From positions 1-19,156 of IMG/VR virus record IMGVR_UViG_2548876862_000001: 19,156 bases of DNA; one strand, given 5' to 3'. Below are positions 14,941-18,362 of this stretch, piece after piece. The notes beneath the pieces were generated by a model, which saw nothing but the letters and a program-made list of their open reading frames with translations, did no database searches and was not told where the DNA came from. The stretch is from a virus. Lineage: Duplodnaviria; Heunggongvirae; Uroviricota; Caudoviricetes. The position numbers were made by a program, and so were the translations under genes. The stretch's first letter is position 1; every line of letters starts with the position of its first letter.

Positions 14941-14962
14941 CACTGTAAGCCAAGGACGGCAT

Positions 14963-15457
14963 TTATTTTATAGTTTTTATGAATTCTTTATTAAATCCCT
15001 TCGCTTCTCCGGGGTATCTTCCGAAGACAATTTTTATAAAAACAGAAAAAATAAAGATAGCAACGCTTAACAACAATTGCAGTATCATTGGAACCCAAAG
15101 AACTACAGGCTCTATATTCATGAAACCAAATATTCTTCCGGCGATCATGGCGAAGTACCACACTGTTATCAGCAAACTTAGTGGCATATGAATTACTGAT
15201 ATTACCAATCCAAGAGCATCAGTAATTCTGTTTTCAAATTTTTCAGGGGAAAACTTTTCTTTAAGGTAATTCAGTGCGCAGGCCTCATTCTCTGGATTTT
15301 CAGCATTTTTCCCTATAGCAATAGAAATCTCAGATATCCTTGATTCAATTCTTTTACGTTTAATAAAACTAGAAAAAAAGAACCACGCAATCTGCAACCC
15401 TATCCCCAGAAATAGAGTTGCGGCAACTAGCACAGCGTAACTCATAGAATCAGACAC
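14963..15457 (-). CDS. AT-rich small inner-membrane protein with three predicted TM helices; candidate superinfection-exclusion protein, SieA-like by position
   Basis: GTG start at 15457 sits 5 nt after a perfect AAGGAGG on the minus strand. Hydrophobic segments [46 protein letters not shown] and [24 protein letters not shown]. Roughly one-third GC against about half in the structural genes. Same position and orientation as sieA in P22. Confidence 0.7.
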
Positions 15458-15517
15458 ACCAACCTCCTTAGTTTTACGCAGGATACCAGATGATAATGTG
15501 TCGCTTCCTAAAGGATA

Positions 15518-16159
15518 TCAAAGCAACGGGATTTCAAGGTAAACTGCGGTTGCCAAAATACTAACATCTTCATTTCTAACAAGAATATTAGGATACATTG
15601 GGTTTAGGGATACTAGGTTTGTCTCTATTTCACCAATGTAAACCTGTTTGAAGCTCAATATTTGCTCTTTATCCAATGATGCTATTACATAATCTTTGCT
15701 TTTAGCTTTTACTAGAGGGCTGAACGTGACAACCGATCCTCTGGGAAAGCTAATACCTGAACTTGTAGTCATAGCTTCACCTTCAATAGTCAATGCAAAT
15801 GCAGAGTCACCAACATTGTATATTGCCGGATGAAATCTAGACGATGAATGTTCACCTGTGTTTAGGTAATGCATAACTTCATCTAGTTTGAGGATTGGTA
15901 TTTGCTTTACCAGAACGTCAGGCATGACGTTTTTTGTTCCCGGCCCCTGGCCTTCACCTAGAGCTAACCACTCAGCCGTAGTACCTAATGCGTTGGCTAA
16001 TGCCTGCAATACACGAAGCCGTGGTTTAGCCTCACCACCCTCGTATGCAGCTATTTGACGTTGAACAACACCAGCTAATTTTGACAACTGCGCCTGCGTC
16101 ATACCCCTGGACTGTCTTGCCAGAGATACTCTTGATGGGAATTGATCGTCAAAATTCAT
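15518..16159 (-). CDS. Lambda-CI-like repressor: XRE-type HTH plus S24 LexA/CI-like C-terminal domain, with Ala at the catalytic-serine position
   Basis: N-terminal HTH (GMTQAQLSKLAGVVQRQIAAYEGGEAKP). C-terminal DSAFALTIEGEAMTT...SFKQV...SLNPMYPNI aligns by eye to lambda CI DSAFWLEVEGNSMTA...FTFKKL...QPLNPQYPMI. ATG at 16157-16159 on the minus strand. Confidence 0.85.
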   Translation of the reverse strand: MNFDDQFPSRVSLARQSRGMTQAQLSKLAGVVQRQIAAYEGGEAKPRLRVLQALANALGTTAEWLALGEGQGPGTKNVMPDVLVKQIPILKLDEVMHYLNTGEHSSSRFHPAIYNVGDSAFALTIEGEAMTTSSGISFPRGSVVTFSPLVKAKSKDYVIASLDKEQILSFKQVYIGEIETNLVSLNPMYPNILVRNEDVSILATAVYLEIPLL

Positions 16160-16180
16160 TAGTTCACCATAAAAAATTCA

Positions 16181-16209
16181 TTGACTCATACTGAGTGTGA
16201 GTGAATAAT
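16181..16209 (+). promoter_or_regulatory. Candidate sigma70 promoter for the arc-like/antirepressor operon
   Basis: TTGACT (16181-16186), 17-bp spacer, AATAAT (16204-16209). The spacer holds the imperfect inverted repeat ACTCATACTGAGTGTGAGT (16184-16202) and a tandem TGAGTG TGAGTG. Confidence 0.45.
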
Positions 16210-16258
16210 CAAACTACAAAAAGTGAGATTATGAGTTTTTCAAAAACAGGAGTGCATA

Positions 16259-16432
16259 ATGACTGAAAAGATATCTTCCATCAAGCCGCGTCAGGTTCGT
16301 TTTACAGAAAAGGTTGATTCACATATCCGCGAATCAGCAAAAAGATGCCATAGGTCAATTCAGGCAGAGATAGCTTATCGAATGGAGTTATTGATGAAAC
16401 TTGAGGCAAAGGGCGATGTTGTCATCCAATAA
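16259..16432 (+). CDS. arc: Arc-like ribbon-helix-helix repressor, 57 aa
   Basis: ATG 16259 follows AGGAG (16248-16252) by 6 nt. Translation MTEKISSIKPRQVRFTEKVDSHIRESAKRCHRSIQAEIAYRMELLMKLEAKGDVVIQ shows the strand-helix-helix pattern and a GRS-x-N-x-EI-like motif (HRSIQAEI) as in P22 Arc. Below the ORF-track cutoff. Confidence 0.7.
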   Translation: MTEKISSIKPRQVRFTEKVDSHIRESAKRCHRSIQAEIAYRMELLMKLEAKGDVVIQ

Positions 16433-16471
16433 AAATAGTGAAGCCCGGCAGTGCGCGAACACAAACCGGGC
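16426..16471 (-). terminator. Candidate terminator for a leftward antisense transcript
   Basis: GCCCGG (16443-16448) pairs with CCGGGC (16466-16471) around a 17-nt loop. On the minus strand it is followed by UUCACUAUUUUUAUU. Confidence 0.3.
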
Positions 16472-17132: not shown

Positions 17133-17151
17133 TTGGTGCGCCGGACGGCGC

Positions 17152-17182
17152 AAAAAGAAAACCGCCAGTGTGCTGCTGGCGG
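17152..17182 (-). terminator. Rho-independent terminator on the minus strand
   Basis: CCGCCAG (17162-17168) pairs with CTGGCGG (17176-17182) around a 7-nt loop, followed at once on the minus strand by UUUUCUUUUU (plus 17152-17161). Confidence 0.5.
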
Positions 17183-17227
17183 CCTATGTCACACCCTTAC
17201 TACCACATAAGGAATGCCTAATGACTT
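17152..17227 (-). ncRNA. Candidate sar-like antisense RNA 2, complementary to the RBS and start of the second antirepressor gene
   Basis: Minus-strand GTGACA (plus 17256-17261), 17-bp spacer, extended -10 TGCTACATT (plus 17233-17241), facing the terminator at 17152-17182. Predicted length about 75 nt, covering the SD at 17209-17213 and ATG 17221. Confidence 0.35.
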
Positions 17228-17946
17228 TGAAGAATGTAGCAAACATCGGATCCGTTGTCACGGATAAAACCATTGACAGCCAAAGTCTTCTGATGATGGT
17301 TAATGAAGCTCGCAAGTTATGTGGAGAGCCATCAGTACGTAACAACAAATTCATCGAGAAAATTGAGGATGAATTGGAGGGCGAGACCTACACAAAAAGT
17401 GTAGGTCGGAAAAACGGGGCTGACATTGATGTTATCTCCATGACTATCAAGCAGGCGCTTCGTGTTGCTGCTCGCGAATCTAAAGCAGTTCGCCGAACAC
17501 TTGTAGACAAACTTGAAAGTATGCAGGAAGCACACATTAAAAGCGGTAAATCAGCGAGTGGACTTGTTGAGTATCGTCAAGCGCGAACATTGAAAATGAC
17601 GGTTGAAGCTGTTACCAATCTGTTCGATCTGATGCCAAATCTTGCGCCTGAGGCAAAGCAGACAGCGGCAGCAAGTATAATCAACCCGCTCGTTGGTTTT
17701 AATGCAATACCTCTTCCGGCAATAGAAGAGCATTACTACTCAGCAGGGGAGGTTGCAGAGCAGCTTGGAGTAACGGCCAACAAGATTGGTCGTATTGCTA
17801 ACGCAAACAACCTCAAAACTGAGCAGTACGGGAAGTTCTTCCTAGATAAATCGGCGCATTCCAGCAAACAGGTAGAGGCGTTCCGTTACAATTCTGAAGG
17901 CGTTAAAGCACTACAACACCTGCTACATGGCTCAAATGTGGCGTAA
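17221..17946 (+). CDS. Second antirepressor-like protein (Rha/ORF6N-like N-terminal region, KilAC/ANT-like C-terminal region, both by eye)
   Basis: ATG 17221 follows AAGGA (17209-17213) by 7 nt; 241 aa. C-terminal YYSAGEVAEQLGVTANKIGRIANANNLKTEQYGKFF resembles antirepressor C-terminal HTH-like domains. The track start GTG 17170 lies inside the upstream hairpin. Confidence 0.6.
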   Translation: MTLKNVANIGSVVTDKTIDSQSLLMMVNEARKLCGEPSVRNNKFIEKIEDELEGETYTKSVGRKNGADIDVISMTIKQALRVAARESKAVRRTLVDKLESMQEAHIKSGKSASGLVEYRQARTLKMTVEAVTNLFDLMPNLAPEAKQTAAASIINPLVGFNAIPLPAIEEHYYSAGEVAEQLGVTANKIGRIANANNLKTEQYGKFFLDKSAHSSKQVEAFRYNSEGVKALQHLLHGSNVA

Positions 17947-17965
17947 CATTTTATAATGAAAACTA

Positions 17966-17989
17966 AACCCGCTTAATCGCGGGTTTTTT
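17966..17989. terminator. Bidirectional rho-independent terminator between the convergent antirepressor and mnt-like genes
   Basis: AACCCGC (17966-17972) pairs with GCGGGTT (17979-17985) around loop TTAATC; T-run 17984-17989 on plus, A/U-rich flank on minus. The mnt-like stop (17973-17975) lies in the loop. Confidence 0.65.
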
Positions 17990-18230
17990 CTTTCCTTAGA
18001 ATTTCAGCCGCAACTTCTTTTACTCGTTCCGAGATTAATGAGGCCAGCCTCTCTTCTTCATCACGATACCCGCTTACAGGTGATGGTTTGGAGAGTGATT
18101 CTTCCATCGTAGCCACAATTTCGGAATTGATAGACCTGTTATTCATTTTTGCACGCTGCTTAATCTTAGCGTGCAACTCGTGTGTAAGCCTCAAGTGGAA
18201 CTGCGCCTCATCGTATTTGCTGTACATCAT
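17973..18230 (-). CDS. mnt: Mnt-like repressor (ribbon-helix-helix N-terminal domain)
   Basis: From ATG at 18228-18230 (minus): MMYSKYDEAQFHLRLTHELHAKIKQRAKMNNRSINSEIVATMEESLSKPSPVSGYRDEEERLA... matches P22 Mnt by recall (FNFRMP...NGRSMNSEL...SKPSPVTGYR). SD GGTGAGG lies 5 nt upstream. The track ORF extends to TTG 18311 with no RBS. Confidence 0.85.
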   Translation of the reverse strand: MMYSKYDEAQFHLRLTHELHAKIKQRAKMNNRSINSEIVATMEESLSKPSPVSGYRDEEERLASLISERVKEVAAEILRKEKTRD

Positions 18231-18362
18231 CAATGCCTCACCAAATGGGTGGAATGGCATCGTAAAACCTACTGTACAAATCAACAATCGTACCATTTCG
18301 GTATGTAACAAACACCAACCGTAGCCATGCTGCGGCCATTCCTTGTATCTGGAGCAAATTAA

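Follow-up and report, generated by a model that had tools for sequence, protein, structure and literature searches.

How is antirepressor production held in check in a P22-like phage in which the regulatory genes known from P22 are replaced or displaced? This question is raised by an island at positions 14941-18362 of a tailed-phage DNA (Caudoviricetes; IMG/VR record IMGVR_UViG_2548876862_000001, positions 1 to 19,156), of which the whole stretch of 19,156 nucleotides (nt) is called the window and supplies all coordinates. According to the map of open reading frames (ORFs) and the sequence, the island is enclosed by homologues of two genes known from P22-like late operons, gene 16 (ending at 14940) and the tailspike gene 9 (from 18363 onwards), and thus occupies the slot of the P22 immI region, which has been termed 'ant moron' and falls into ten types in sixteen genomes (PMC2629481). 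With a probability of roughly 60%, it is considered a P22-type immI/ant moron of the HS-1 type from an Escherichia coli P22-like phage (Lederbergvirus), composed of three units, namely sieA, a portable antirepressor (ant) cassette and an independent Mnt unit. This division is made because the parts occur separately elsewhere.

An earlier note on this DNA had described a SieA-like membrane protein, a CI-like repressor divergent from a small arc-like gene, two antirepressor-like genes of different families and a Mnt-like gene convergent with these and divergent from gene 9, all in DNA of lower G+C (GC) content than the structural genes. With the curated Pfam cut-offs as threshold for family calls, the protein searches which it had proposed upheld every assignment (Table 1), the arc-like one through matches below the cut-off. 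The two antirepressor-like genes, ant1 and ant2, bear no sequence relationship to each other, the GC content amounts to 0.424 in the island versus 0.499 at 1-14940, all island ORFs are intact and the flanks match Lederbergvirus phages. The further statement that this gene order corresponded to no known one is correct with regard to P22, HK620, Sf6, CUS-3 and ST64T/L, from all of which it differs, but the order from the CI-like protein to the tailspike recurs identically in the prophage of E. coli HS. The implied novelty has to be given up, since the order was already drawn as the 'HS-1' type in Fig. 3 of Villafane et al. (2008; PMC2629481) and is also present in phage JEP4 and in complete E. 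coli genomes. What the island presents is a fairly common version of the immI region of P22 that had been catalogued before, and no new kind of system. At least 80% of the island is covered in 15 complete E. coli genomes, and the module of the CI-like protein and the divergent gene for 57 amino acids (aa) is found in 28 of 5426 such genomes, including E. coli HS, at about 99% identity. The conservation of the arrangement in 28 complete E. coli genomes (95-99%) and the strong purifying selection on the 57-aa gene show that these ORFs have not come together by chance. A functional study of the HS-1 type was not found in the literature; an RNA-seq paper on Kapi1 was considered as a source and set aside, as the Kapi1 locus is of the canonical Mnt/Arc/ant type.

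The genes for the CI-like protein and the 57-aa protein, putatively of ribbon-helix-helix (RHH) type and here named RHH57, together with the sar antisense RNA, ant1 and ant2, form a portable cassette which moves as a block. Homologues of RHH57 with 81-93% identity occur in prophages of Yersinia, Klebsiella and Hafnia that are of sipho-type according to their tail genes. The order in these is constant: a CI-like gene and a 57-aa gene diverge from each other, and the latter is followed by a Bro-N ant gene and then by another ant-like gene, the family of which varies (phrog_1726 type, KilA-N plus ANT, or pRha). In these sipho-type loci, from which alone the orientation was read, the cassettes are situated among the tail genes, point in the same direction as these and have no Mnt gene. 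Additionally, a scan of one genome per species revealed 11 more CI-like loci in Yersinia, Klebsiella, Lonsdalea, Tatumella, Providencia, Xenorhabdus, Morganella and an unclassified Enterobacterales bacterium. The antisense RNA sar1 was found in nine of them and the second one, sar2, in five, each on the expected strand and with the expected spacing; gene content was inspected in one of the 11 (locus L027). The parts of the cassette are also separable within E. coli. About 60 other genomes of this species share only 16426-16520, i.e., sar and the start of ant1, placed after a canonical Arc gene, and in the prophage of E. coli MS1657 an Arc-family pair replaces the CI-like/57-aa pair, with ant1, ant2 and the distal Mnt homologue being retained. 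This natural swap of the regulator cassette (locus L009, 1303-1971) encodes Arc-family proteins of 127 and 57 aa, and the perfect palindrome GGTTCTAGAACC follows the promoter there.

Table 1. Positions of genes, RNAs and regulatory sites in the island (window coordinates; bp, base pairs).
Feature	Position	Strand	Description
sieA	14963-15457	-	superinfection-exclusion membrane protein, 164 aa; phrog_7745 E 7e-109, full length; GC 0.356
sieA promoter-like site	15493-15521	-	TTGATA-17-CATTAT; consensus scan; overlaps stop codon of CI-like gene
CI-like repressor	15518-16159	-	213 aa; HTH_3 48.4 bits, Peptidase_S24 47.9 bits, both over Pfam cut-offs
Divergent control region	16160-16258		99-bp spacer between CI-like gene and RHH57
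Rightward promoter	16181-16209	+	TTGACT-17-AATAAT; near-consensus, scan 10/12
Perfect dyad	16184-16196		ACTCATACTGAGT; within spacer of rightward promoter
Conserved box	16231-16238		ATGAGTTT; downstream of rightward -10
RHH57	16259-16432	+	57 aa, Arc-like ribbon-helix-helix; first gene of ant operon; putative Arc analogue
sar1	16429-16505	-	homologue of P22 sar; complementary to ant1 ribosome-binding site; 5' end abuts ant1 ATG
Psar1	16512-16520	-	extended -10 (TGCTACAAT, minus strand) inside ant1 codons 3-5
ant1	16506-17132	+	208 aa; Bro-N + P22_AR_C (Pfam); phrog_245 'anti-repressor Ant' E 4e-54
sar2 (predicted)	17143-17228	-	RNA from ~17226 to 17150, ~77 nt; covers ant2 Shine-Dalgarno and start codon
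sar2 terminator	17159-17185	-	hairpin and U run; strong minus-strand terminator, ~45 nt downstream of Psar2
Psar2	17233-17261	-	GTGACA-17-TACATT with TG extension; promoter scan; inside ant2 codons 5-14
ant2	17221-17946	+	241 aa, antirepressor-like; phrog_1726 'anti-repressor' E 4e-101
Intrinsic terminator	17965-17986	both	bidirectional; closes ant operon and Mnt-like gene; stop codon of the latter in loop
Mnt homologue	17973-18230	-	85 aa; DNA-reading strand QFHLRL; Pfam Arc 54.8 bits
Mnt-like/gene 9 spacer	18231-18362		left ~85 bp conserved along with Mnt-like gene; right 45 bp P22-type gene 9 leader

The assignment of regulators to sites in the control region follows from a comparison of the cassettes of Yersinia, Klebsiella and Hafnia. 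In this footprint, the -35 and -10 elements of the rightward promoter and the ATGAGTTT box are conserved, as is the 57-aa protein with 81-86% identity among the cassettes compared, whereas the dyad in the promoter spacer varies together with a divergent CI-like protein (43-48% identity), the Yersinia version being a perfect palindrome of 17 bp. As the dyad and the CI-like protein vary and the box and the 57-aa protein are conserved, the dyad may be ascribed to the CI-like protein and the box to the 57-aa protein. For a leftward promoter of the CI-like gene, inspection by eye yielded weak candidates only, none of them convincing.

The CI-like protein, which is 100% identical to gp14 of JEP4, combines the helix-turn-helix and S24 domains of the self-cleaving LexA/CI repressors and lacks two further features of this group, the complete Ser-Lys pair and the cleavage site. 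In the alignment to lambda CI, an alanine (GEAM) stands opposite the nucleophile S149 (GNSM), with K192 being kept, and an Ala-Gly or Cys-Gly cleavage site after the IPIL motif was found by inspection to be absent from the protein; only one relative (P0046) has it. The closest clade (72-99% identity) features GEAM or GDAM, with GDSM in one member, and relatives at 50% identity or less all carry G[DN]SM. The variants S119A of LexA and S149A of lambda CI are non-cleavable. Because of this precedent, the alanine at the nucleophile position and the missing Ala-Gly site, the CI-like protein is probably an SOS-blind repressor with an S24 domain serving dimerisation. What weighs against this is that most CI-like relatives keep the Ser-Lys pair, yet without a canonical Ala-Gly site; the family may thus never have been self-cleaving, and the change from serine to alanine would then be less meaningful.

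The first gene of the operon was compared with Arc by several routes. RHH57 matches the Pfam family ParD_like with E 8e-4 and Arc with E 0.011, and it resembles AmrZ (PDB 3qoq) with E 0.018. An hhalign comparison with an Arc/Mnt alignment gave a probability of 60% (E 9e-5), and the alignment with Arc spans the beta-strand, helix A and the turn (G/H)RSxNxEI, with hRSxQxEI versus GRSVNSEI in Arc. The gene is clearly coding, with proportions of non-synonymous (pN) and synonymous (pS) differences of 0.09-0.18 versus 0.70-0.92, a ratio of the corresponding rates (dN/dS) of about 0.05 and saturated synonymous sites. Two points speak against an Arc-like nature, as the Pfam matches remain below the curated cut-offs (16.0 bits for Arc versus 20.4) and the AlphaFold2 (AF2) monomer model is a single long helix, which is uninformative for an obligate dimer. 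Taken together, RHH57 is regarded with moderate confidence as an analogue of Arc. The 57-aa gene of HS-1 was not recognised in PMC2629481, where CUS-3 and HS-1 were stated to possess ant genes with an 'apparent lack of arc' and hence a control of ant unlike that of P22. Upstream of ant in CUS-3 (L023, CP000711), an unannotated Arc-like ORF of 46 aa beginning with MKVKTLRMPEKLEKILEEKAKEECRSFSAEVIKRVL is located at 6759-6899 on the minus strand, and a strong sar match of 81.8 bits at 6499-6570 on the plus strand. The lack of arc noted in 2008 thus looks like an annotation gap in the case of CUS-3.

Beyond the protein regulators, the cassette carries antisense RNAs, which were absent from the account of the earlier note. 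The spacer between rhh57 and ant1 aligns with the arc-ant spacer of P22 (z = 9 against shuffles) and encodes sar1 opposite the ribosome-binding site of ant1. This RNA folds into the two hairpins of P22 sar (z -6.4), and its promoter Psar1 corresponds in position and in the form TGCTAnAnT to P22 Psar and to the sites at most other loci. The Rfam model RF00262 scores P22 sar with 97.8 bits and does not match sar1 even at E 10, which counts against a common family; nevertheless, sar1 shares with P22 sar the position, strand, two-hairpin architecture and promoter placement. A covariance model (R1) built from the P22, epsilon34, CUS-3 and window sequences assigns 66.9 bits to sar1. It also finds matches, directly 3' of the RHH gene and in antisense direction, in the cassettes of Hafnia, Yersinia and Klebsiella as well as in nine of the 11 species loci. 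Modelled in this broader way than in Rfam, the sar family unites P22, epsilon34, CUS-3, Kapi1, the window and cassettes of at least eight genera. In an alignment of 20 sequences, which was fitted to the model, 91% of the cells pair, compensatory changes affect 10 of 20 pairs, and covariation scores 0.404, whereas shuffles give 0.257 and slid partners 0.094 at most. An extended -10 of the form TGnTAnnnT precedes the 5' end of sar1 by 15-18 nt in 12 of 18 loci, and it lies in codons 2-4 wherever this end abuts the ant start codon. Concerning gene starts, the called start of the Bro-N ant gene lies inside the 57-aa gene, with an overlap of 17 nt, in loci L016, L019, L021 and L022 (around 3658-3750 and equivalent positions); judging by the sar model and a conserved ATG beside the sar 5' end, the real start would be about 90 nt downstream. 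The only Rfam matches in the island, weak ones to RyhB, SymR and isrK, reflect terminator hairpins and not membership in these families.

Both ant genes are assigned to antirepressors with differing support. Ant1 reaches 52.7 bits for P22_AR_C (cut-off 22.4) and is accordingly an antirepressor-like protein related to P22 Ant. Ant2 shares 61% identity with a protein annotated as antirepressor in Stx2a phages and is part of a family of about 1940 clusters at 65-98% identity, most of which are annotated as hypothetical; neither a Pfam family nor a match in a sequence search of the PDB nor an experimentally studied homologue was found for it. Its AF2 model matches antirepressor, KilA and KilAC proteins in BFVD with E 2e-8 to 1e-5. 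Since proteins with Bro-N and KilA-N domains have diverse roles, the two proteins could also be Bro/KilA/Rha-class regulators engaged in host takeover or anti-defence, and the cassette would then control something else. The likeness of ant1 to P22 Ant, which is confined to the C-terminal domain (29% identity over 69 residues), would fit such a role, as would the lack of a Pfam family and of an experimentally studied homologue for ant2, which owes the name antirepressor to annotation and to a fold match of medium confidence (predicted local distance difference test, pLDDT, 69; template modelling score, TM, 0.2-0.4). This alternative is nonetheless unlikely, given that the island mirrors the control logic of P22 ant item by item, in its position and sar RNA as well as in its Arc-like first gene and divergent repressor, that the PHROG and fold matches are mostly annotated as antirepressors, and that PADLOC returned only generic helix-turn-helix matches and no defence family on the island. 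On the basis of annotation and fold similarity, Ant1 and Ant2 are thus expected to inactivate prophage repressors.

A second antisense unit, the predicted sar2, overlaps the start of ant2. In seven loci its hairpin, its A run and the two promoter elements are retained despite variation in loop and spacer, and the region resembles that of sar1 (z = 5.2). A model (R2) built from five sequences matches six loci outside its building set (L016, L022, L027, L029, L030 and L034); in the first three, inspection placed the match across the ant1/ant2 junction in antisense orientation, and in the others it is on the expected strand. These loci include ones with a KilA-N/ANT or pRha protein as second ant gene. 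The covariation score reaches 0.328, whereas shuffles give 0.174 and slid partners 0.127 at most. Furthermore, (G/A)TGACA, a 17-nt spacer and TGCTAnAnT at -13 from the R2 5' end occur in 11 of 12 loci, again including other families of the second ant gene. Synonymous identity in ant2 is 0.74 in codons 1-15 versus 0.57 elsewhere, which is suggestive only. Some observations detract from this unit: the sar1 model misses it, so that it constitutes a separate family, and apart from the terminator hairpin its fold is unexceptional (z -1.8). A paralogy of sar2 and sar1 was tried by covariance model and rejected, with R1 giving only E 2.5-9.8 at sar2 positions. Altogether, sar2 is a well-supported prediction of a second antisense RNA. 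Another hairpin is located at 17137-17152, just past the U run. In P22, sar blocks Ant synthesis from late read-through transcripts, next to the established roles of Mnt and Arc (work of Susskind, Sauer and colleagues, as cited in PMC2629481). As a second ant gene shares the late read-through path, it would need the same protection, which fits the habit of the cassette to occupy sites in sense orientation within late operons.

The history of ant2 bears on the direction of change at this locus. In P22 (L003, BK000583), a stretch of 44 bp (3270-3313) in the spacer that separates the ant terminator from gene 9 has 82% identity to window positions 17369-17412, which correspond to about codons 50-64 of ant2 (E ~3e-8 in a small search); in P22 it is flanked by a repeated CACCGTAGCCA motif. 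The earlier note had called the regulatory circuit 'expanded', but the direction may be wrong in view of this ant2-type relic, and P22 may be a reduced form derived from an ancestor with two ant genes. Such relics could also be taken to mean that the island is mostly evolutionary debris in rapid flux, in which the Mnt homologue and perhaps ant2 no longer function. The high turnover implied by the ten types of the region, the interruption of ant2 by IS3 in E. coli HS and its truncation in VSe13 agree with this, as does the remark of the phage L authors that their own mnt is perhaps a remnant. The intact ORFs and the conservation of the cassette order across genera contradict it, together with the low pN of RHH57 at saturated synonymous sites, the conserved promoters, the compensatory changes in both RNAs and the abundance of ant2-type proteins, so that decay as the general explanation is very unlikely.

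The Mnt homologue forms the third unit. It is a member of the Mnt family, as it has the Arc-type RHH and aligns end to end with P22 Mnt at 45% identity, including SKPSPV.GYR..ERLA, with the C-terminal tetramerisation region kept. It is not divergent from the arc-like gene at overlapping Pant/Pmnt promoters, being placed 1.8 kb off beyond ant2. Considering that the protein is full length and its gene intact and conserved in many prophages, it might be supposed that the logic of P22 persists, the distal Mnt homologue repressing the ant promoter and the CI-like protein serving elsewhere, e.g., as a second immunity repressor. However, the cassettes of Yersinia, Klebsiella and Hafnia do without a Mnt gene and always have the CI-like gene at the promoter, and the Mnt homologue adjoins the tailspike in three phages devoid of an intact ant gene, namely Sf101, IME10 and VSe13 (the last keeps only an ant fragment of 96 aa). 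Likewise, its upstream region and the ant promoter region share no motif and not even a common 8-mer, and in phiKp_30 the N-terminal DNA-reading part was exchanged together with the DNA upstream of its own gene. A control of ant by the distal Mnt homologue is therefore most improbable. The phage phiKp_30 is a Klebsiella Lederbergvirus that carries sar2, ant2 and the C-terminal two thirds of the Mnt homologue (L004, 2924-3998; 91% identity) as a block in a different genomic context. Dyads and shared k-mers in all intergenic regions and in the MS1657 ant promoter offered nothing convincing as an operator of the Mnt homologue, and an 8-bp inverted pair at 18251/18335 was dismissed as chance, being conserved neither in JEP4 nor in VSe13. 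In the spacer towards gene 9, the left part of about 85 bp is conserved along with the Mnt-like gene in JEP4, VSe13, MS1657, Sf101 and IME10, and the right 45 bp (18318-18362) constitute the P22-type gene 9 leader with 43 of 45 bases identical. On the most economical reading, the Mnt homologue would be a unit independent of the ant cassette, namely a self-regulated relic of an older Mnt-Arc-Ant region; it might also influence transcription that runs into gene 9 or act in trans on ant promoters in other phages.

The remaining unit, sieA, shows 93-95% nucleotide identity to P22 sieA and sits in the same slot; the annotated P22 sieA promoter has a matching relative position to the promoter-like site here. 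A terminator separating the CI-like gene from sieA was not found, and co-transcription of the two may therefore occur. At 14800-18700, 11 terminator-like sites of hairpin and T run stand against 3.1 +/- 1.7 in shuffles, i.e., they are enriched. The DNA outside the island (1-14940) is a mosaic Lederbergvirus morphogenesis cluster; its best matches, APC_JM3.2 and IME10, show 95-96% identity over 63% of the window, and no phage record reaches a coverage of 80% of the window.

From these parts, the following circuit is proposed. In the lysogen, the CI-like repressor would bind the ACTCATACTGAGT dyad and shut off rhh57-ant1-ant2, which is the task of Mnt in P22. During infection, RHH57 would act in an Arc-like manner by binding the ATGAGTTT box and ending expression of the operon after a short burst. 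The RNAs sar1 and sar2 would be transcribed from extended -10 promoters in the first codons of ant1 and ant2, respectively, each pairing with the ribosome-binding site of its own gene, and would prevent Ant synthesis from late-operon read-through as P22 sar does. Ant1 and Ant2 would bind and inactivate prophage repressors of the immC type, possibly with differing specificity. In view of the alanine at the S24 nucleophile and the lack of an Ala-Gly site, the switch would probably not be opened by RecA/SOS. The leftover Mnt homologue would regulate itself and perhaps transcription entering gene 9, and sieA, expressed from its own promoter, would exclude the DNA of a superinfecting phage. A tentative extension, with the odds against it, is that the cassette is self-insulating: as each ant gene would carry its own silencing antisense promoter, sites in sense orientation in the late operons of unrelated podo- and siphoviruses could be tolerated without late Ant, the loss of the nucleophile in the E. 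coli P22-like repressor would uncouple the switch from SOS, and the Mnt homologue, left stranded, would target in trans either the transcription of gene 9 or the ant promoters of related phages entering the cell.

The induction of resident prophages upon the arrival of another phage depends on antirepressors. Their control hence shapes the cross-talk between prophages, including Stx phages that carry ant2-type genes. In this regard, the locus offers a testable example in which each of two tandem genes would be guarded by an antisense RNA, and the sar RNA family is extended far past the narrow Rfam model. The new aspects comprise the view of the region as a cassette, the repressor without nucleophile, the wider sar family and the predicted second antisense unit.

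Among the known systems, HS-1 and JEP4 are closest, with the CI-like protein (WP_001008290), the 57-aa gene, ant1, ant2, the Mnt homologue and the tailspike in identical order. HS-1 differs by another gene in the sieA slot and the IS3 element within ant2. JEP4 (MT740315), which by megablast has the same genes as the island, including one for a 57-aa protein 100% identical to RHH57, differs by the lack of sieA and by an additional ORF of 73 aa 3' of ant2. This ORF, situated between ant2 and the Mnt homologue in JEP4 (L001, 5329-5550) and in the AHB29 prophage (L002, 4749-4970), is absent from the window, where the stop codons of ant2 and the Mnt homologue are only 26 bp apart. At the same junction of gene 16 and gene 9, HK620 has remnants only, Sf6 nothing, CUS-3 two mnt genes and one ant gene, and phage L/ST64T only mnt.

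A more distant comparison concerns the antirepressor modules under LexA/SOS control in Gifsy phages, coliphage 186 (Tum) and SPC32H, in which a repressor outside immC controls an antirepressor that in turn inactivates the main prophage repressor. The island resembles these modules in that its putative antirepressor genes would be under a repressor outside immC. Unlike in these modules, the presumed controlling repressor is phage-encoded, adjoins the ant genes and lacks the S24 nucleophile, and a direct SOS input is therefore unlikely.

The immI region of P22, with the order sieA-orf59a-mnt followed by divergent arc-sar-ant, agrees with the island in the genomic slot, the layout of a divergent repressor and an operon of a small gene of putative RHH type and ant, the terminator before gene 9 and the gene 9 leader. 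The homologous sar RNA with its promoter in the first ant codons and the P22AR C-terminal domain of ant are common to both as well. In the island, however, the Mnt slot is filled by the CI-like protein with HTH_3 and S24 domains, the arc slot by a distant RHH family (25% identity) and the N-terminus of ant1 by Bro-N instead of the AntA-type domain of P22 Ant; a second ant gene with its own predicted antisense unit is added, and the Mnt homologue is placed distally, converging on ant2 and diverging from gene 9. The Mnt/Arc/sar circuit of P22 is thus one member of a wider family, in which HTH-S24 stands in for Mnt and a distant, putative RHH protein for Arc; the layer of antisense RNAs, by contrast, is preserved and apparently even doubled.

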